A stretch of 64,000 bases of DNA from Escherichia coli O157:H7 (GCF_013167455.1 NZ_CP038328.1), one strand, 5' to 3'. Shown: positions 24,872-42,478, counted from the stretch's first letter. Program-made: numbers and translations. Notes: generated from the letters alone by a model not told the origin.

Positions 24872-26167
<1,296 letters not shown>

Positions 26168-33138: not shown

Positions 33139-33411
33139 ATGAATCTTGATGACATTATCAACAGCATGACGCCTGAGGTATACCAGCGTTTGTCGACCGC
33201 CGTTGAACTGGGGAAATGGCCTGATGGCGTTGCGTTGACCGAGGAACAAAAAGAGAACTGCCTGCAACTGGTGATGCTGTGGCAAGCCCGCAATAATACC
33301 GAAGCACAGCATATGACAATTGACACAAATGGTCAGATGGTCATGAAGAGCAAACAGCAGTTAAAAGAAGATTTTGGTATCTCAGCAAAGCCTATTGCCA
33401 TGTTTAAGTAA
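33139..33411 (+). CDS. yeaC: DUF1315 protein YeaC
   Basis: Start at MNLDDIINSMTPEVYQ gives 90 aa. Confidence 0.7.
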   Translation: MNLDDIINSMTPEVYQRLSTAVELGKWPDGVALTEEQKENCLQLVMLWQARNNTEAQHMTIDTNGQMVMKSKQQLKEDFGISAKPIAMFK

Positions 33412-33670
33412 GTGGTTCATCCCCTTTTTGCCGCGGCTATGAAGGGGATAGCCAACAATGACCCCACGACTCATCTCAATTATCTCGCCATGACCTGGCT
33501 AAGTCCCAGTCCGATCTCTTGCCGTCGCGTTCACGCCTGAATGACTTCTCCTGAACTTAAGTCTCAGACCTATTTGGCCGGTAATCCCTCTCAAATTTGC
33601 TCCTTTTGCGTTCCGCCTTACATCAACCTGTAACAGAACCAGCCATTTTCTGCGTAATTGTGATCTGAGT

Positions 33671-33702
33671 TGTAAAACGCAGATTATTATCTGTGTTTTA
33701 CA
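33671..33702. promoter_or_regulatory. 12-bp inverted repeat upstream of ydjL, candidate operator
   Basis: tgtaaaacgcag-attattat-ctgtgttttaca (one mismatch), about 80 bp upstream of the ydjL start. Confidence 0.3.
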
Positions 33703-33780
33703 TGTTTAATGTTGACCTCAAAAATCATGTGGGTAAGTATGATGACCATCTAAGCAAAACAAAACACAGAGGATGACGCA

Positions 33781-34857
33781 ATGAAAGCACTGGCTCGGTT
33801 TGGCAAAGCCTTTGGCGGCTACAAGATGATCGATGTGCCACAACCCATTTGTGGCCCGGAAGATGTAGTGATTGAAATTAAAGCCGCGGCAATCTGCGGC
33901 GCAGACATGAAGCACTACAATGTCGATAGCGGTTCTGATGAGTTTAACTCTATCCGCGGCCATGAGTTCGCAGGTTGTATTGCGCAGGTTGGTGAAAAAG
34001 TCAAAGACTGGAAAGTGGGGCAACGCGTCGTGTCGGATAACAGCGGTCACGTCTGCGGCGTTTGTCCGGCCTGTGAACAAGGTGATTTTCTGTGTTGTAC
34101 AGAAAAAGTAAACCTTGGTCTGGATAACAATACCTGGGGCGGTGGTTTTTCCAAATATTGTCTGGTTCCTGGTGAAATTCTCAAAATTCATCGTCATGCG
34201 TTGTGGGAAATCCCTGATGGTGTTGATTATGAGGACGCAGCCGTACTTGACCCTATCTGTAATGCCTACAAATCCATCGCGCAGCAATCGAAATTCCTCC
34301 CTGGTCAGGATGTGGTCGTCATCGGCACTGGCCCACTCGGGCTGTTCTCCGTACAAATGGCGCGAATTATGGGGGCGGTAAATATCGTCGTCGTTGGTCT
34401 GCAAGAAGATGTGGCGGTCCGCTTCCCGGTTGCAAAAGAACTGGGTGCGACGGCAGTAGTAAATGGTTCTACCGAAGATGTGGTGGCGCGCTGCCAGCAA
34501 ATTTGTGGCAAAGACAATCTGGGACTGGTGATTGAATGCTCCGGTGCCAATATCGCACTGAAACAAGCCATCGAAATGCTCCGTCCGAACGGGGAAGTGG
34601 TACGCGTTGGAATGGGCTTCAAACCTCTTGATTTCTCGATTAATGACATTACCGCCTGGAACAAAAGCATCATTGGGCATATGGCCTATGACTCCACCTC
34701 ATGGCGTAACGCTATCAGGCTATTAGCCAGCGGCGCTATCAAAGTCAAACCGATGATCACGCATCGTATCGGCCTGTCGCAATGGCGCGAAGGGTTTGAT
34801 GCGATGGTCGATAAAACCGCAATCAAAGTGATCATGACTTACGACTTTGATGAATAA
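33781..34857 (+). CDS. ydjL: Zn-dependent alcohol/polyol dehydrogenase YdjL
   Basis: 358-aa ORF; MDR-family zinc dehydrogenase. Confidence 0.8.
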   Translation: MKALARFGKAFGGYKMIDVPQPICGPEDVVIEIKAAAICGADMKHYNVDSGSDEFNSIRGHEFAGCIAQVGEKVKDWKVGQRVVSDNSGHVCGVCPACEQGDFLCCTEKVNLGLDNNTWGGGFSKYCLVPGEILKIHRHALWEIPDGVDYEDAAVLDPICNAYKSIAQQSKFLPGQDVVVIGTGPLGLFSVQMARIMGAVNIVVVGLQEDVAVRFPVAKELGATAVVNGSTEDVVARCQQICGKDNLGLVIECSGANIALKQAIEMLRPNGEVVRVGMGFKPLDFSINDITAWNKSIIGHMAYDSTSWRNAIRLLASGAIKVKPMITHRIGLSQWREGFDAMVDKTAIKVIMTYDFDE

Positions 34858-34883
34858 CCACTCTCCTGAAGGAACGTTATCGC

Positions 34884-36263
34884 ATGGATCAGATAACAAA
34901 ACCGCATTGTGGTGCACGGCTGGATCGCTTACCGGATTGCCGCTGGCATTCATCAATGTTTGCCATCGTCGCGTTTGGCTTGCTTGTCTGCTGGAGTAAT
35001 GCCGTTGGTGGCTTGATCCTCGCGCAGCTGAAAGCGTTGGGCTGGACAGATAATTCCACCACAGCCACATTCTCAGCAATCACGACCGCCGGAATGTTTC
35101 TCGGTGCGCTGGTGGGCGGCATCATTGGCGACAAAACCGGTCGCAGAAATGCGTTCATCCTCTATGAGGCCATTCATATTGCCTCGATGGTTGTCGGTGC
35201 TTTCTCACCGAATATGGATTTCCTTATTGCCTGCCGTTTTGTGATGGGAGTTGGGCTGGGAGCTTTACTGGTTACGCTGTTTGCTGGTTTCACCGAATAT
35301 ATGCCCGGTAGAAATCGTGGAACGTGGTCAAGTCGGGTTTCCTTTATTGGCAACTGGTCATATCCGCTCTGTTCATTGATAGCGATGGGACTCACGCCGC
35401 TGATTAGTGCAGAGTGGAACTGGCGGGTACAACTGCTTATCCCTGCAATATTGTCGCTTATCGCTACGGCGCTGGCCTGGCGCTACTTTCCTGAATCCCC
35501 GCGCTGGCTGGAATCGCGCGGACGGTATCAGGAAGCCGAGAAAGTCATGCGGAGTATAGAAGAAGGCGTCATACGCCATACAGGTAAACCTTTGCCGCCC
35601 GTGGTTATTGCTGATGACGGTAAAGCACCACAAGCGGTGCCATATTCAGCCTTACTGACAGGAGTATTACTGAAACGCGTGATATTAGGCTCTTGTGTGC
35701 TGATTGCCATGAACGTTGTGCAGTACACACTAATTAACTGGTTGCCAACGATATTCATGACCCAGGGGATTAATTTAAAAGACTCGATTGTTTTAAATAC
35801 CATGAGTATGTTTGGCACGCCATTTGGCATTTTTATTGCCATGCTGGTGATGGATAAAATTCCGCGTAAAACAATGGGTGTGGGGCTATTAATCCTGATT
35901 GCGGTGCTCGGATATATCTATTCACTGCAAACCAGCATGTTGCTCATAACGTTGATTGGTTTCTTCCTGATTACTTTCGTCTATATGTACGTTTGCTATG
36001 CCTCGGCAGTGTATGTCCCTGAGATCTGGCCGACAGAGGCCAAACTCCGTGGCTCCGGTCTGGCGAATGCGGTAGGGCGAATCAGTGGTATTGCCGCACC
36101 TTATGCCGTTGCAGTGCTGCTCAGTAGTTATGGCGTTACGGGAGTCTTTATTCTTCTGGGGGCGGTTTCAATTATTGTCGCAATTGCTATCGCCACCATT
36201 GGAATCGAAACCAAAGGTGTCTCCGTTGAAAGTTTAAGTATTGATGCAGTAGCCAATAAATAA
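34884..36263 (+). CDS. ydjK: MFS sugar transporter YdjK
   Basis: 459-aa 12-TM ORF. Confidence 0.8.
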   Translation: MDQITKPHCGARLDRLPDCRWHSSMFAIVAFGLLVCWSNAVGGLILAQLKALGWTDNSTTATFSAITTAGMFLGALVGGIIGDKTGRRNAFILYEAIHIASMVVGAFSPNMDFLIACRFVMGVGLGALLVTLFAGFTEYMPGRNRGTWSSRVSFIGNWSYPLCSLIAMGLTPLISAEWNWRVQLLIPAILSLIATALAWRYFPESPRWLESRGRYQEAEKVMRSIEEGVIRHTGKPLPPVVIADDGKAPQAVPYSALLTGVLLKRVILGSCVLIAMNVVQYTLINWLPTIFMTQGINLKDSIVLNTMSMFGTPFGIFIAMLVMDKIPRKTMGVGLLILIAVLGYIYSLQTSMLLITLIGFFLITFVYMYVCYASAVYVPEIWPTEAKLRGSGLANAVGRISGIAAPYAVAVLLSSYGVTGVFILLGAVSIIVAIAIATIGIETKGVSVESLSIDAVANK

Positions 36264-36279
36264 TACGGGTGGATTCAAA

Positions 36280-37323
36280 ATGAAAAATTCAAAAGCAATA
36301 TTGCAGGTGCCGGGCACAATGAAAATTATTTCAGCAGAAATACCAGTGCCTAAAGAAGATGAAGTTTTGATTAAAGTAGAATATGTCGGTATTTGTGGTT
36401 CAGATGTACATGGTTTTGAATCAGGTCCGTTTATTCCGCCTAAAGACCCAAATCAAGAAATTGGCCTGGGTCATGAATGCGCCGGGACGGTTGTGGCTGT
36501 GGGAAGCCGTGTGCGCAAATTTAAACCGGGGGATCGGGTAAATATCGAACCTGGCGTTCCTTGCGGTCACTGTCGTTACTGTCTGGAAGGCAAATATAAC
36601 ATCTGCCCGGACGTTGATTTTATGGCGACACAACCCAACTACCGCGGCGCATTAACGCACTATCTGTGTCATCCGGAGAGCTTTACTTACAAACTGCCCG
36701 ACAATATGGACACGATGGAAGGGACGCTGGTGGAGCCTGCCGCAGTCGGGATGCATGCCGCGATGCTGGCAGATGTTAAACCGGGTAAGAAGATAATTAT
36801 TCTGGGAGCAGGTTGTATTGGTTTGATGACGTTGCAAGCGTGCAAATGCCTGGGAGCAACGGAAATTGCCGTCGTTGATGTGCTGGAAAAACGTCTGGCA
36901 ATGGCGGAACAGCTTGGTGCGACAGTGGTTATTAACGGCGCAAAAGAAGACACTATTGCACGCTGTCAGCAATTTACCGAAGACATGGGCGCAGATATTG
37001 TTTTCGAAACAGCGGGTTCTGCGGTCACCGTTAAACAGGCACCTTATCTGGTAATGCGTGGCGGTAAAATTATGATTGTTGGTACTGTACCCGGCGCTTC
37101 GGCAATCAATTTCCTCAAAATCAATCGCGAAGTCACTATCCAGACGGTATTCCGCTATGCCAATCGTTATCCGGTCACGATTGAAGCAATTTCTTCAGGG
37201 CGATTCGATGTGAAATCGATGGTGACGCATATTTACGATTATCGGGATGTACAACAGGCATTTGAAGAGTCAGTTAACAACAAACGCGACATTATTAAAG
37301 GCGTTATTAAGATTAGCGATTAA
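36280..37323 (+). CDS. ydjJ: Zn-dependent dehydrogenase YdjJ
   Basis: 347-aa ORF; sorbitol-dehydrogenase-like. Confidence 0.8.
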   Translation: MKNSKAILQVPGTMKIISAEIPVPKEDEVLIKVEYVGICGSDVHGFESGPFIPPKDPNQEIGLGHECAGTVVAVGSRVRKFKPGDRVNIEPGVPCGHCRYCLEGKYNICPDVDFMATQPNYRGALTHYLCHPESFTYKLPDNMDTMEGTLVEPAAVGMHAAMLADVKPGKKIIILGAGCIGLMTLQACKCLGATEIAVVDVLEKRLAMAEQLGATVVINGAKEDTIARCQQFTEDMGADIVFETAGSAVTVKQAPYLVMRGGKIMIVGTVPGASAINFLKINREVTIQTVFRYANRYPVTIEAISSGRFDVKSMVTHIYDYRDVQQAFEESVNNKRDIIKGVIKISD

Positions 37324-37343
37324 TTAATACGGGAGAACAGAAC

Positions 37344-38180
37344 ATGCTCGCAGATATCAGATATTGGGAAAACGATGCCACAAATAAACGTTATGCTATT
37401 GCCCATTTTAATGTATGGAATGCAGAAATGTTGATGGGCGTTATCGACGCAGCCGAAGAAGCGAAATCACCGGTTATTATTTCTTTTGGCACAGGTTTTG
37501 TCGGCAACACCTCATTTGAAGATTTCTCTCACATGATGGTATCTATGGCACAAAAAGCAACGGTGCCGGTAATAACTCATTGGGATCATGGTCGGAGTAT
37601 GGAGATTATTCATAACGCCTGGACTCATGGTATGAATTCATTAATGCGTGATGCTTCCGCATTTGATTTCGAAGAAAATATTCGTTTAACCAAAGAGGCT
37701 GTTGATTTCTTCCATCCGCTGGGTATTCCGGTAGAGGCGGAATTAGGGCATGTCGGTAATGAAACCGTTTATGAGGAAGCGCTGGCGGGCTATCACTATA
37801 CCGATCCTGACCAGGCGGCTGAATTTGTTGAACGTACGGGCTGTGACTCATTGGCTGTCGCCATCGGCAACCAGCATGGGGTTTATACGTCAGAGCCACA
37901 ATTGAACTTTGAGGTCGTCAAACGCGTACGCGATGCAGTGTCTGTTCCGCTGGTTTTGCATGGCGCATCGGGGATCAGTGATGCCGACATTAAAACTGCA
38001 ATTTCGTTGGGTATCGCGAAAATCAACATCCATACGGAGCTCTGTCAGGCCGCAATGGTCGCAGTGAAAGAAAACCAGGATCAGCCTTTCCTGCATTTAG
38101 AACGTGAAGTACGTAAAGCTGTAAAAGAACGGGCATTGGAAAAAATTAAACTGTTCGGTTCTGATGGCAAAGCGGAATAA
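37344..38180 (+). CDS. ydjI: Class II aldolase YdjI
   Basis: 278-aa ORF; tagatose/fructose-bisphosphate aldolase family. Confidence 0.8.
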   Translation: MLADIRYWENDATNKRYAIAHFNVWNAEMLMGVIDAAEEAKSPVIISFGTGFVGNTSFEDFSHMMVSMAQKATVPVITHWDHGRSMEIIHNAWTHGMNSLMRDASAFDFEENIRLTKEAVDFFHPLGIPVEAELGHVGNETVYEEALAGYHYTDPDQAAEFVERTGCDSLAVAIGNQHGVYTSEPQLNFEVVKRVRDAVSVPLVLHGASGISDADIKTAISLGIAKINIHTELCQAAMVAVKENQDQPFLHLEREVRKAVKERALEKIKLFGSDGKAE

Positions 38181-39117
38181 TGATATGGATAATCTCGACG
38201 TTATTTGTATAGGTGCCGCTATTGTTGATATTCCATTGCAACCGGTCAGTAAAAATATCTTTGATGTGGATTCTTATCCTCTTGAAAGAATCGCAATGAC
38301 CACCGGGGGTGATGCAATAAATGAAGCAACAATTATTTCTCGTCTGGGCCATTGTACAGCATTAATGAGCCGTATTGGTAAAGATGCCGCAGGGCAGTTT
38401 ATTCTCGACCATTGCCGCAAAGAGAATATTGATATTCAAAGCCTGAAGCAGGACGTCAACATAGATACCTCTATTAATGTTGGACTGGTGACGGAGGATG
38501 GCGAGCGGACGTTTGTCACAAACCGTAACGGCAGTCTGTGGAAATTGAATATTGACGATGTTGATTTTGCGCGGTTTTCCCAGGCGAAATTATTATCACT
38601 GGCCAGTATTTTCAACAGTCCACTATTGGATGGTAAAGCGCTAACAGAAATTTTTACGCAAGCTAAAGCCCGGCAGATGAATATCTGTGCCGATATGATT
38701 AAACCGCGGTTGAATGAAACGCTGGATGATATTTGCGAAGCATTGAGTTATGTCAATTATGCCGAGGCAAAATTACTCACCGGGAAAGAGACACTGGATG
38801 AAATTGCTGACAGCTTTCTTGCGTGCGGCGTAAAAACGGTGGTGATTAAAACGGGTAAAGACGGCTGCTTTATCAAGCGTGGTGACATGACGATGAAGGT
38901 GCCGGCGGTCGCAGGAATAACCGCCATCGACACCATTGGCGCGGGCGATAACTTTGCTTCAGGTTTTATTGCGGCACTGTTAGAAGGAAAAAATCTGCGT
39001 GAATGCGCACGCTTTGCCAATGCAACGGCGGCTATCTCGGTTCTAAGCGTCGGTGCCACCACCGGCGTAAAAAACAGAAAGCTGGTCGAACAATTGCTGG
39101 AAGAATACGAAGGATAA
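38164..39117 (+). CDS. ydjH: PfkB-family sugar kinase YdjH
   Basis: 317-aa ORF overlapping the ydjI 3' end; GAGD motif (IGAGDNFASGF). Confidence 0.8.
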   Translation: MAKRNNDMDNLDVICIGAAIVDIPLQPVSKNIFDVDSYPLERIAMTTGGDAINEATIISRLGHCTALMSRIGKDAAGQFILDHCRKENIDIQSLKQDVNIDTSINVGLVTEDGERTFVTNRNGSLWKLNIDDVDFARFSQAKLLSLASIFNSPLLDGKALTEIFTQAKARQMNICADMIKPRLNETLDDICEALSYVNYAEAKLLTGKETLDEIADSFLACGVKTVVIKTGKDGCFIKRGDMTMKVPAVAGITAIDTIGAGDNFASGFIAALLEGKNLRECARFANATAAISVLSVGATTGVKNRKLVEQLLEEYEG

Positions 39118-39126
39118 TGAAGGCAA

Positions 39127-40107
39127 ATGAAAAAGATACCTTTAGGCACAACGGATATTACGCTTTCGCGAATGGGGTTGGGGACATGGGCCATTGGCGG
39201 CGGTCCTGCATGGAATGGCGATCTCGATCGGCAAATATGTATTGATACGATTCTTGAAGCCCATCGTTGCGGCATTAACCTGATTGATACTGCACCAGGA
39301 TATAACTTTGGCAATAGTGAAGTTATCGTCGGTCAGGCGTTAAAAAAACTGCCCCGTGAACAGGTTGTAGTAGAAACCAAATGCGGCATTGTCTGGGAAC
39401 GAAAAGGAAGTTTATTCAACAAAGTTGGCGATCGGCAGTTGTATAAAAACCTTTCCCCGGAATCTATCCGCGAAGAGGTAGAAGCCAGCTTGCAACGTCT
39501 GGGTTTTGATTACATCGATATCTACATGACGCACTGGCAGTCGGTGCCGCCATTTTATACGCCGATCGCTGAAACTGTCGCAGTGCTTAATGAGTTAAAG
39601 GCTGAAGGGAAAATTCGCGCTATAGGCGCTGCTAACGTCGATGCTGACCATATCCGCGAGTATCTGCAATATGGTGAACTGGATATTATTCAGGCGAAAT
39701 ACAGTATCCTCGACCGGGCAATGGAAAACGAACTGCTGCCGCTATGTCGTGATAATGGCATTGTGGTTCAGGTTTATTCCCCGCTAGAGCAGGGATTGTT
39801 GACCGGCACCATCACTCGTGATTACGTTCCGGGCGGCGCTCGGGCAAATAAAGTCTGGTTCCAGCGTGAAAACATGCTGAAAGTGATTGATATGCTTGAA
39901 CAGTGGCAGCCACTTTGTGCTCGTTATCAGTGCACAATTCCCACTCTGGCACTGGCGTGGATATTAAAACAGAGTGATTTAATCTCCATTCTTAGTGGGG
40001 CTACTGCACCGGAACAGGTACGCGAAAATGTCGCGGCACTGAATATCAACTTATCGGATGCAGACGCAACATTGATGAGGGAAATGGCAGAGGTCTTGGG
40101 GCGTTAA
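39127..40107 (+). CDS. ydjG: Aldo-keto reductase YdjG
   Basis: 326-aa ORF. Confidence 0.8.
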   Translation: MKKIPLGTTDITLSRMGLGTWAIGGGPAWNGDLDRQICIDTILEAHRCGINLIDTAPGYNFGNSEVIVGQALKKLPREQVVVETKCGIVWERKGSLFNKVGDRQLYKNLSPESIREEVEASLQRLGFDYIDIYMTHWQSVPPFYTPIAETVAVLNELKAEGKIRAIGAANVDADHIREYLQYGELDIIQAKYSILDRAMENELLPLCRDNGIVVQVYSPLEQGLLTGTITRDYVPGGARANKVWFQRENMLKVIDMLEQWQPLCARYQCTIPTLALAWILKQSDLISILSGATAPEQVRENVAALNINLSDADATLMREMAEVLGR

Positions 40108-40125
40108 ATACTCAACACGATTCAC

Positions 40126-40172
40126 CTCTGTTTCTGTGAAAACTGTGATGAAAATCTGTGATTCAAACAGGT
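40126..40172. promoter_or_regulatory. Repeated CTGTGA motifs with flanking inverted repeat upstream of ydjF, candidate DeoR-type operator
   Basis: Three CTGTGA copies at 40134, 40143 and 40156, bracketed by ctgttt / aaacag. Confidence 0.3.
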
Positions 40173-40243
40173 TATTTTGAAAGTAAACATCGGTTATGCG
40201 ATAATCGCGCTAATGTGATGTAAAAAGATACAGGGGTGTAATC

Positions 40244-41002
40244 GTGGCGGCAAAAGACAGGATTCAGGCAATTAAGCAAATGGTTGCCAACGATAAAAAG
40301 GTGACAGTCTCAAATTTGAGTGGGATTTTTCAGGTAACCGAAGAAACCATTCGCCGCGATCTTGAGAAGCTGGAAGATGAAGGCTTTTTGACCAGAACCT
40401 ATGGTGGTGCTGTTTTAAATACAGCGATGTTGACGGAGAATATCCATTTTTATAAGCGCGCTTCATCGTTTTATGAAGAGAAGCAGCTTATTGCACGCAA
40501 GGCACTACCCTTTATCGACAATAAAACCACCATGGCAGCCGATTCCAGTAGTACCGTAATGGAATTGCTCAAATTGTTACAGGACCGTAGTGACCTGACG
40601 TTGCTAACCAACTCGGCGGAAGCGATTCATGTTCTGGCTCAGTCAGAAATTAAAGTCGTTTCAACGGGTGGGGAACTAAACAAAAATACACTTTCACTGC
40701 AAGGAAGAATTACTAAAGAGATCATCAGCCGCTATCATGTCGATATCATGGTAATGAGTTGTAAAGGTCTTGATATTAACAGCGGCGCGCTGGACTCTAA
40801 TGAAGCGGAAGCTGAAATCAAAAAGACAATGATCCGTCAGGCGACAGAAGTTGCGTTATTGGTTGATCACTCTAAGTTTGATCGCAAAGCTTTTGTCCAG
40901 TTAGCCGACTTTAGTCATATTAATTACATAATAACTGATAAATCACCGGGTGCAGAGTGGATAGCATTTTGCAAAGACAATAATATCCAGCTGGTGTGGT
41001 AA
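40244..41002 (+). CDS. ydjF: DeoR-family transcriptional regulator YdjF
   Basis: 252-aa ORF, GTG start; N-terminal HTH and DeoR C-terminal domain. Confidence 0.8.
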   Translation: MAAKDRIQAIKQMVANDKKVTVSNLSGIFQVTEETIRRDLEKLEDEGFLTRTYGGAVLNTAMLTENIHFYKRASSFYEEKQLIARKALPFIDNKTTMAADSSSTVMELLKLLQDRSDLTLLTNSAEAIHVLAQSEIKVVSTGGELNKNTLSLQGRITKEIISRYHVDIMVMSCKGLDINSGALDSNEAEAEIKKTMIRQATEVALLVDHSKFDRKAFVQLADFSHINYIITDKSPGAEWIAFCKDNNIQLVW

Positions 41003-41119
41003 TTTAAGCACGCGTTGTCAATATTATTTGTTCCTGCGCCTGGAAATAAAATGATGATAAAGATGCGGCAAGTGAATTTGCCGCAATTGCTACCTTTTTT
41101 AGCAAATCCGAGGCACCCA

Positions 41120-42478
41120 ATGGAACAATATGATCAAATTGGCGCAAGACTGGACCGCTTGCCTTTGGCCCGGTTTCATTATCGTATATTTGGTATTATA
41201 AGCTTTAGTCTGTTATTAACAGGGTTTTTGAGTTACTCCGGTAATGTCGTCTTAGCAAAGCTGGTAAGCAATGGATGGTCAAATAATTTCCTCAATGCCG
41301 CCTTTACCTCGGCATTAATGTTTGGTTATTTCATCGGCTCTCTTACCGGTGGGTTCATCGGTGATTACTTTGGGCGGCGCAGGGCGTTTCGCATAAATCT
41401 TCTCATCGTCGGTATTGCTGCAACAGGGGCCGCTTTTGTCCCTGATATGTACTGGCTTATCTTCTTTCGCTTCCTGATGGGAACAGGAATGGGGGCGCTG
41501 ATTATGGTTGGCTATGCCTCATTTACGGAGTTTATCCCCGCGACGGTGCGTGGAAAATGGTCCGCGCGGCTCTCATTTGTTGGTAACTGGTCGCCCATGC
41601 TGTCTGCGGCGATAGGTGTGGTGGTTATCGCTTTTTTTAGTTGGCGGATAATGTTTCTGTTGGGTGGTATTGGCATACTGTTAGCCTGGTTTCTCTCAGG
41701 TAAATACTTTATTGAGTCGCCACGATGGCTGGCAGGGAAAGGGCAAATCGCAGGTGCAGAATGCCAACTTCGTGAAGTAGAGCAGCAAATTGAAAGAGAG
41801 AAGAGTATTCGTTTACCCCCGCTTACTTCGTATCAGAGCAACAGCAAGGTTAAAGTAATCAAGGGTACTTTCTGGCTCCTGTTTAAAGGTGAAATGTTAC
41901 GACGTACATTAGTCGCGATTACTGTTTTAATTGCAATGAACATTTCGCTTTATACCATCACCGTATGGATACCGACCATATTTGTTAACTCCGGCATTGA
42001 TGTCGATAAATCAATATTAATGACCGCTGTTATTATGATTGGCGCTCCGGTAGGAATATTTATTGCGGCATTAATTATTGATCATTTTCCTCGTCGGTTA
42101 TTTGGCTCCACCTTACTTATTATTATTGCAGTGTTAGGCTATATCTATTCAATTCAGACTACAGAGTGGGCGATTTTAATCTATGGCCTGGTGATGATCT
42201 TCTTTTTATACATGTATGTTTGCTTCGCGTCGGCGGTTTATATCCCGGAGCTTTGGCCAACGCATTTACGCCTGCGCGGTTCGGGTTTCGTTAATGCCGT
42301 CGGACGGATCGTCGCAGTCTTCACGCCCTATGGCGTTGCGGCATTATTAACACATTATGGGTCGATCACGGTGTTTATGGTACTTGGTGTCATGTTATTG
42401 CTCTGTGCGCTGGTTCTCTCCATTTTTGGCATCGAAACGCGGAAGGTGTCGTTGGAAGAGATTTCTGAGGTAAATTAA
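41120..42478 (+). CDS. ydjE: MFS transporter YdjE
   Basis: Start at MEQYDQIGARLDRL gives 452 aa; paralogous to ydjK. Confidence 0.75.
   Translation: MEQYDQIGARLDRLPLARFHYRIFGIISFSLLLTGFLSYSGNVVLAKLVSNGWSNNFLNAAFTSALMFGYFIGSLTGGFIGDYFGRRRAFRINLLIVGIAATGAAFVPDMYWLIFFRFLMGTGMGALIMVGYASFTEFIPATVRGKWSARLSFVGNWSPMLSAAIGVVVIAFFSWRIMFLLGGIGILLAWFLSGKYFIESPRWLAGKGQIAGAECQLREVEQQIEREKSIRLPPLTSYQSNSKVKVIKGTFWLLFKGEMLRRTLVAITVLIAMNISLYTITVWIPTIFVNSGIDVDKSILMTAVIMIGAPVGIFIAALIIDHFPRRLFGSTLLIIIAVLGYIYSIQTTEWAILIYGLVMIFFLYMYVCFASAVYIPELWPTHLRLRGSGFVNAVGRIVAVFTPYGVAALLTHYGSITVFMVLGVMLLLCALVLSIFGIETRKVSLEEISEVN

Follow-up and report, generated by a model that had tools for sequence, protein, structure and literature searches.

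A candidate operator of the DeoR-family regulator YdjF and a CRP-like partner site upstream of the ydjLKJIHG operon in Escherichia coli O157:H7

A 17-bp pseudo-palindrome, ATCTGTG-N3-CACAGAT with an (A/T)3 spacer, was found to be the conserved unit upstream of ydjL in orthologous loci, and this box is probably the operator of YdjF, the cluster's own DeoR/GlpR-family regulator. The 12-bp inverted repeat at 33671–33702, which the first-pass annotation had credited with a core shared with the ydjF promoter, is most likely not the binding unit itself but the junction of two such boxes lying in mirror orientation. The result, drawn from comparative evidence only, is a candidate operator of an uncharacterised DeoR-family regulator together with a CRP-like partner site. 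All positions refer to the window, the whole stretch of 64,000 nucleotides (64 kb) from E. coli O157:H7 (GCF_013167455.1, NZ_CP038328.1) that was analysed. On its plus strand the gene order is msrB, yeaC (ending at 33411), ydjL, ydjK, ydjJ, ydjI, ydjH, ydjG, ydjF, and ydjE. The proposed regulated operon, ydjLKJIHG, occupies 33781–40107 on the plus strand (ydjL at 33781–34857, ydjG ending at 40107), and the gene of the proposed binder, ydjF, lies at 40244–41002 on the same strand.

The inverted repeat was present as described, with 12-nt arms tgtaaaacgcag and ctgtgttttaca that are complementary at 11 of 12 positions and contain one G:T pair, and it could be extended to 14-nt arms complementary at 13 of 14 positions around a 4-nt spacer. 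The left arm (TGTAAAACGCAGAT) lies at 33671–33684 and the right arm (ATCTGTGTTTTACA) at 33689–33702. Its placement about 80 bp upstream of ydjL also held, with 79 nt separating the end of the repeat from the ATG at 33781. When the 369-nt intergenic region was shuffled 2000 times with its dinucleotides preserved, one shuffle produced a repeat this good (13/14 or better, spacer up to 12 nt), and the 64-kb window contained two repeats of at least 13/14 with 14-nt arms, including the one at ydjL. The repeat is real and non-random. The second such repeat (AGGACGCTTTTTATATGTGATTAAAAGCGTCCT) was located at 393–425. Two further repeats were observed in the intergenic region, a perfect 8-bp stem just past the yeaC stop codon (33419–33449, ATCCCCTT...AAGGGGAT, loop of 15 nt) and a 16-nt direct repeat (33500–33573, TAAGTCCCAGTCCGAT and TAAGTCTCAGACCTAT, copies 58 nt apart); the part of the spacer that holds them is Escherichia-specific.

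The TGTnAAAAC core that had been proposed as common to both promoters did not survive inspection. Its single match in the window falls within the ydjF promoter, at 40135, and the repeat has none; the literal motif TGTNAAAAC is absent there because the repeat reads TGTAAAAC, which is one base shorter, and it was rejected as a shared element. The Watson–Crick repeat was near-perfect in Escherichia only. In Citrobacter and Klebsiella, about 10 of the 14 positions were retained, the other four being mismatched or G:T; Serratia and Enterobacillus lack the repeat and have a different left arm.

Alignment of the region upstream of ydjL from 24 Enterobacterales showed no similarity before about −125 from the ATG (about −95 from the predicted transcription start). 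Downstream of that point the conserved blocks were, in order, TTTGTGATCT, GTTGTGAAAT.CAGAT, ATCTGTGTTTTAAAGATTT, TTGAC(C), and (T)AAGTAT. The last two are read as the −35 and −10 hexamers of a sigma-70 promoter on the plus strand, TTGACC at 33712–33717 and the weak AAGTAT at 33735–33740, 17 nt after the −35, with a putative start near 33747. Within this alignment TTGA was invariant and the following C nearly so, while the −10 had an invariant A at position 5 and at least 90% conservation elsewhere except for the G at position 3. The consensus promoter scan did not pick up this conserved ydjL promoter. Two other hexamer pairs that it returned, one of them on the minus strand, were discarded because their −10 was not conserved.

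Two candidate YdjF boxes were delimited upstream of this promoter. The promoter-proximal box B (33689–33705) reads ATCTGTGTTTTACATGT in the window strain, which is of the O157 type, and its left 14 nt form the right arm of the inverted repeat. It starts 23 nt upstream of the −35, so that its centre falls at about −50, and it ends 6 bp upstream of the −35. Box B reads ATCTGTGTTTTACAGAT in K-12 and ATCTGTGTTTCACAGAT in Serratia and Enterobacillus, where it is the perfect palindrome ATCTGTG-TTT-CACAGAT; K-12, E. whittamii, and Symbiopectobacterium carry it with one mismatch. Three of its seven pairs had changed on both sides, for example from G..C to T..A, a result matched by 5 of 500 shuffles. 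The distal box A (33668–33684, AGTTGTAAAACGCAGAT), whose right 14 nt form the left arm of the repeat, is centred at about −71 and is a weak match with four mismatches to ATCTGTGNNNCACAGAT; the block GTTGTGAAAT.CAGAT within it was kept in most Enterobacterales. The two boxes are 21 bp apart, equal to two helical turns, and lie in mirror orientation, with the spacers AAA in box A and TTT in box B.

Several other box-like sequences were noted around ydjL. A half-box at 33762–33771 (AAACACAGAG), adjoining the ydjL ribosome-binding site, agrees with 9 of the 10 positions of the consensus spacer and right half, and together with the preceding A (33761–33770) it is complementary at 10 of 10 positions to 33690–33699 of box B; it could be a downstream auxiliary half-site or a chance match. 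A sequence found in Escherichia only, at 33648–33664 (TTCTGCGTAATTGTGAT), lies 20 bp upstream of box A and has a box-like left half (TTCTGCG), and it could be a third, genus-specific box or equally a product of chance. Inside ydjL, box-like palindromes conserved in Enterobacterales occur at 33892–33908 (ATCTGCGGCGCAGACAT) and 34088–34104 (TTCTGTGTTGTACAGAA), the latter being the perfect TCTGTG-TTG-CACAGA in Budvicia and Serratia. Since these two lie in conserved codons, where coding constraint may equally account for them, they were not counted as operator evidence.

The ydjF promoter was found to be organised in the same way. Its hexamers, TTGAAA-17-GATAAT at 40177–40205 on the plus strand, are conserved in Enterobacterales and correspond to a constitutive sigma-70 promoter identified by genomic SELEX with RNA polymerase (PMC3946193). 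Box B' (40154–40170) reads ATCTGTGATTCAAACAG in the window and ATCTGTGATTCAGACAT in most other genera, and is centred at about −50. Box A' (40132–40148, TTCTGTGAAAACTGTGA) contains the TGTGAAAAC quoted in the first-pass annotation, and the repeat string given there for this promoter, ctgtgaaaactgtga, is indeed present at 40134–40148. The left half and spacer of box A' are good and its right half is poor, with at least four mismatches in all; its centre lies at about −72, 22 bp upstream of that of box B', and the CTCTGTTTCTGTGTAAAA block of this region is conserved. An alignment of the ydjG–ydjF spacer from 23 Enterobacterales gave the blocks CCTCTGTTTCTGTGTAAAA, AAATCTGTGATTCAGACATGTT, TTTTGAAA (the −35), and GATACT/GATAAT (the −10). 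Directly after ydjG, the sequence ACCTCTGTTTC at 40120–40131 was almost invariant across Enterobacterales, more so than the boxes.

The heptamer ATCTGTG, which occurs six times in the 64 kb on both strands, starts at 33689 in the ydjL promoter and at 40154 in the ydjF promoter, in each case exactly 23 nt ahead of the −35, and in E. coli both promoters have AAAAC at −15 to −11 from it, within boxes A and A'. The idea of a motif common to the operon and regulator promoters was thus right in substance, as a shared box at the same distance from the −35, and wrong in the core that had been quoted for it. A palindromic matrix was trained on enterobacterial ydjL box B sequences only. With this matrix the ydjF box ranked first to third in 17 of 23 loci of about 21 kb, a count over mutually related enterobacterial loci that are not independent of one another. 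Within the 64-kb window, box B ranked second, box B' third, and box A fifth; the top match (25763–25779, ATCTTCAAAGAGCAGAT, 16.0 bits) lies outside the ydj cluster. In Enterobacterales, the expected conservation of a motif upstream of both ydjL and ydjF was therefore found in the form of a box at about −50 of both promoters. A (pseudo)palindromic site in the promoters of both operon and regulator, often with several copies about two helical turns apart, is the arrangement of a DeoR/GlpR-type operator.

This conservation extends beyond Enterobacterales. Scanning species-representative genomes for YdjL yielded 58 loci. The ydjLKJIHGF(E) order was syntenic in Escherichia, Citrobacter, Klebsiella, Raoultella, Yokenella, Intestinirhabdus, Budvicia, Symbiopectobacterium, and Enterobacillus, while the Serratia contig ends within ydjK. 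With small rearrangements, the cluster including ydjF was also syntenic in Lachnospiraceae, Eubacteriaceae, Clostridiaceae, Enterococcus, Anaerococcus, Megamonas, and an Atopobiaceae genome. The YdjL orthologues of the distant loci (L022–L045) are 76–85% identical to the E. coli protein, and this high identity together with the synteny suggests that gut phyla have exchanged the entire cluster horizontally.

When the enterobacterial matrix was applied to 14 non-enterobacterial loci, the top match of the whole locus lay within 320 nt upstream of the ydjL orthologue in eight. Among 1000 column-permuted control matrices, which were palindromic and kept the A+T preference, the mean was 1.1 loci and the maximum seven, so that none of the 1000 reached eight. 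The box reads TTCTGTGAAACACAGAA in Atopobiaceae, where two more copies flank it 20 and 21 bp away, ATCTTTGAATCAAAGAA in Lachnospiraceae, and ATCTTTGTTTCAAAGAA in Enterococcus, where it lies upstream of a ydjE-like transporter gene; in Eubacteriaceae, a pair of copies is separated by 20 bp. Changes from G..C to T..A left the palindrome intact. Tandem boxes at 20–21 bp were present in L023, L026, L036, and L037, and the box starts 24–25 nt upstream of a TTGnnn-17-TAnnnT promoter in L022, L023, L024, L026, L035, and L037 and, for the middle box, in L036. An additional box overlaps the −35 in L036 and L028. De novo 7-mer enrichment in the non-enterobacterial upstream regions was dominated by A-rich words, and the box words were not significant after correction for 1889 words; ATCTTTG, TGTGAAA, ACAGAAA, and CTGTGAA stood near the top of the list, in 5–6 of 12 regions, with uncorrected p values of about 1e-3. 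Outside Enterobacterales, too, the box is found ahead of ydjL orthologues whose cluster includes ydjF.

The proposed binder, YdjF, has an N-terminal helix-turn-helix and a C-terminal sensor domain (Pfam HTH_DeoR, 2.9e-17, and DeoRC, 2.4e-49). Its gene follows ydjLKJIHG in all complete enterobacterial loci and lies inside the cluster in Firmicutes, Atopobiaceae, and Megamonas. Against the NCBIfam equivalog models for GlpR, AgaR, SrlR, FucR, DeoR, UlaR, and YgbI, YdjF did not reach any curated cut-off, the best scores relative to cut-off being 171.6/300 bits for GlpR_Halo, 152.8/260 for AgaR, 138.1/350 for SrlR, and 137.7/259 for FucR. The helix-turn-helix (VTEETIRRDLEKL) is very conserved in all loci across phyla, and as this holds with or without a detectable box, it does not discriminate. 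In the literature searched, we found neither binding or genetic data on YdjF nor a described YdjF operator. Because the box travels with the cluster and ydjF across phyla and has the wrong spacing for CRP, YdjF is the best candidate for the binder of these boxes, an assignment that we infer from the comparison of loci. The earlier suggestion of a YdjF operator with autoregulation accordingly gains comparative support, with the corrections that the unit is the 17-bp box and not the 12-bp repeat and that the quoted core was off by one base.

CRP is also involved, and a CRP-like site was delimited at each of the two promoters. Upstream of ydjL, a CRP-like site, TGTGA-TCTGAG-TTGTA, lies at 33659–33674, sharing bases with the left half of box A. 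The left half of this CRP-like site, TGTGATCT (33659–33666), agrees with the consensus at 5 of 5 positions and with the extended consensus at 8 of 8, and it was invariant in the 24 Enterobacterales (alignment positions T20 G21 T22 G23 A24 C26), while the right half TTGTA is poor, with 2 of 5. The left half is the obvious candidate for a CRP half-site upstream of ydjL. The centre of the full site would lie at about −80.5 from the predicted start; class I CRP sites were defined here as TGTGA-N6-TCACA centred near −61.5, −71.5, or −82.5. A published study reports a CRP gel shift and CRP-dependent expression, with activation in vivo, of ydjLKJIHG (PMC8085971), and ydjF is among the targets found by genomic SELEX with CRP (PMC3105977). 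At ydjF, an Escherichia-specific CRP-like site, TGTGA-TGAAAA-TCTGT, lies at 40144–40159, centred at about −60.5, and overlaps box B'. In E. coli, the TGTGA repeats of this promoter are thus to some extent Escherichia-specific and CRP-like (PMC3105977).

These sites invite the reading that CRP or some other global factor, rather than YdjF, occupies the boxes, their TGTG and CACA words being CRP half-sites; the activation and gel shift at the ydjL promoter (PMC8085971) and the SELEX recovery of the ydjF region (PMC3105977) would agree with it. We consider it very improbable. The boxes space their words as TGTG-N3-CACA, whereas CRP needs TGTGA-N6-TCACA, and the separate, invariant TGTGATCT upstream is a better CRP candidate than the boxes. 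Moreover, the cluster has retained the box in Firmicutes and Atopobiaceae, where, to our knowledge, a CRP of the enterobacterial type is not expected. Even less credence is given to the repeat acting as RNA, that is, as a hairpin in a read-through transcript from yeaC that serves as a terminator or as a 5'-UTR switch, in the latter form with the right arm pairing alternatively beside the ydjL ribosome-binding site. The ydjL '5' UTR' cloned by Adams et al. begins inside yeaC (primer at window position 33304, 477 nt upstream of the ATG), and the repeat region can therefore be transcribed in a read-through RNA. The same authors described a region of strong Rho-dependent termination that lies about 144 nt inside ydjL (window position about 33925), so that read-through RNA is apparently made and then aborted while the operon is off. 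The palindrome at 33892 lies about 20–30 nt upstream of the Rho-termination region, which was reported at K-12 position 1861188.

The repeat does have the appearance of an RNA element in several respects. It was flagged as terminator-like at 33671–33702 by the consensus scan (in the permissive scan only), its predicted RNA fold is −17.8 kcal/mol (z −5.4), its non-Watson–Crick positions across species are mostly G–U on the plus strand, with 84.5% of cells able to pair, and its right arm is complementary at 10 of 10 positions to 33761–33770. Against this, covariation was seen at none of the 14 pairs, only one pair having changed on both sides, and all measures equalled those of shuffles. Hairpin stability collapsed outside Escherichia (−9.0 kcal/mol and z −1.9 in Citrobacter), and Serratia and Enterobacillus do not retain the left arm. 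With no covariation and no stability outside Escherichia, the RNA hairpin or terminator was rejected. The pairing of the right arm with 33761–33770 was likewise set aside, as it was not conserved and slid controls were equally good. As a terminator the element is poor, with 4 of 14 G–C pairs in the stem and a weak T tail (TGTTTAATGT), and no Term-seq 3' end was reported for ydjL. An Rfam scan of 33300–33900 returned a meaningless match only (E = 0.67). The repeat lies upstream of the conserved −35 and −10 and is therefore outside the operon's own transcript; its minus strand folds equally well, as expected of any DNA palindrome; and the tandem, non-palindromic copies at 20–21 bp in Firmicutes argue for protein binding rather than for RNA.

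For the preferred reading of the boxes as YdjF operators, the following mechanism is proposed. A YdjF oligomer would place one dimer on each of boxes A and B and occupy about −79 to −42. The covered stretch would overlap the promoter-proximal half of the CRP site and the DNA between CRP and RNA polymerase, and YdjF on both boxes would exclude CRP and the polymerase alpha subunit from the ydjL promoter. With its weak −10, this CRP-dependent promoter would depend on an activator and would stay off under YdjF. YdjF would come off once a phosphorylated intermediate of the pathway bound its DeoRC domain, and the equivalent box pair at about −72 and −50 of the ydjF promoter would provide negative autoregulation. 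That YdjF represses rather than activates, and what kind of molecule the inducer is, are points that we infer. Most characterised DeoR-family members are repressors, a background which the scheme fits. It also fits the reported behaviour of the ydjL promoter, which was off in vitro in culture and on in the mouse gut, and whose regulation was termed uncharacterised (PMC6561318).

In Enterobacterales the boxes leave the core promoter uncovered, an unusual arrangement for a simple repressor, and the fixed position at −50 suits an activator equally well. The same boxes might thus be used by YdjF as an activator, which when loaded with its effector would sit at about −50 and recruit RNA polymerase together with CRP. 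We regard this as unlikely, though clearly less so than the CRP and RNA readings. A fixed spacing from box to −35 is typical of activators, and here Enterobacterales and six distant loci all keep 23–25 nt between box start and −35 despite diverged intervening sequence. The weak −10 of ydjL (AAGTAT) and a core promoter free of boxes in Enterobacterales would also be in keeping with activation. The fucose regulator FucR of E. coli is an activating member of the DeoR family, and YdjF scores the NCBIfam 'L-fucose operon activator' model as well as the SrlR repressor model. Against activation stand the predominance of repressors among characterised family members and the box over the −35 in L036 and L028, a repressor-like position. 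The ydjF promoter, moreover, is near-consensus and constitutive for RNA polymerase alone (PMC3946193), and a box there is therefore more easily read as a site of negative autoregulation.

Comparison with known systems places the candidate YdjF operator close to, and yet apart from, that of GlpR in the glp regulon. YdjF shares the HTH_DeoR and DeoRC architecture of GlpR, a phosphorylated metabolite would be the expected inducer in both, and the candidate sites at ydj resemble the tandem pseudo-palindromic operators, about 20–22 bp apart, at a CRP-dependent sugar-catabolic promoter. GlpR operators, however, have half-sites of the TGTTCG type and boxes over the core promoter, whereas the ydj box ATCTGTG-N3-CACAGAT is unrelated to that half-site and the enterobacterial boxes lie upstream of the −35; YdjF also falls below the cut-off of every characterised equivalog model. 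At the deo and cdd promoters, DeoR and CytR provide examples of a repressor that interferes with CRP activation (anti-activation), and box A similarly overlaps the proximal half of a CRP-like site that precedes a weak, CRP-dependent promoter. CytR, however, is a LacI-family protein that has to contact CRP, and DeoR works through distant operators and looping; in these features the known systems differ from what is described for ydj. FucR belongs to the same family as YdjF, and FucR-like activation would agree with a site held at a constant distance from the −35, immediately before it, but at 137.7 bits against a cut-off of 259, YdjF is not its equivalog.

Within E. coli, the region 33300–33900 was 100% identical to that of strain 2017C-4109. 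The window form of a 60-mer around the repeat was found exactly in 297 complete genomes, with several O157:H7 strains among the matches listed, and the K-12 form exactly in 2103 of 5426 complete genomes. An alignment of nine Escherichia sequences showed no change in the left arm; the right half of box B read TACAGAT, TGCAGAT, or TAAAGAT, with TACATGT in the O157 type only. The O157:H7-type lineage has the change from CAGAT to CATGT at 33703–33704, in addition to a C to T change at 33685 in the spacer between the boxes. With two right-half substitutions in its box B, the O157-type strain shows that the site tolerates change, which counts against an operator role. About 20% of complete E. coli genomes matched the yeaC part of the query only. 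In strain A8 (L060, 4113–4272), yeaC is followed directly by pncA, and the whole ydjLKJIHGFE island is therefore absent. This island (33412–42478, about 9 kb) is a presence/absence polymorphism, and its absence from some E. coli agrees with an earlier report (PMC9602453).

A more far-reaching reading, which we consider doubtful, is that the ydj cluster passes, complete with its regulator, operator sequence, and −50 geometry, between Enterobacterales and gut Firmicutes or Actinobacteria as a self-contained unit, with YdjF as an effector-dependent activator or a dual regulator acting with CRP, and with altered regulation in O157:H7. If it were true, the O157:H7 lineage, in which the right half of box B is lost (CAGAT to CATGT), would regulate the operon unlike other E. 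coli. YdjF is among the remaining uncharacterised transcription factors of E. coli, and ydjLKJIHG encodes a sugar-acid pathway whose promoter has already been used as a biosensor trigger (PMC6561318). A candidate operator with coordinates, a consensus, a CRP partner, and an O157:H7 variant offers a handle for finding the inducer and the true substrate of this pathway, and the same box in gut Firmicutes suggests that its regulatory logic is portable across phyla.
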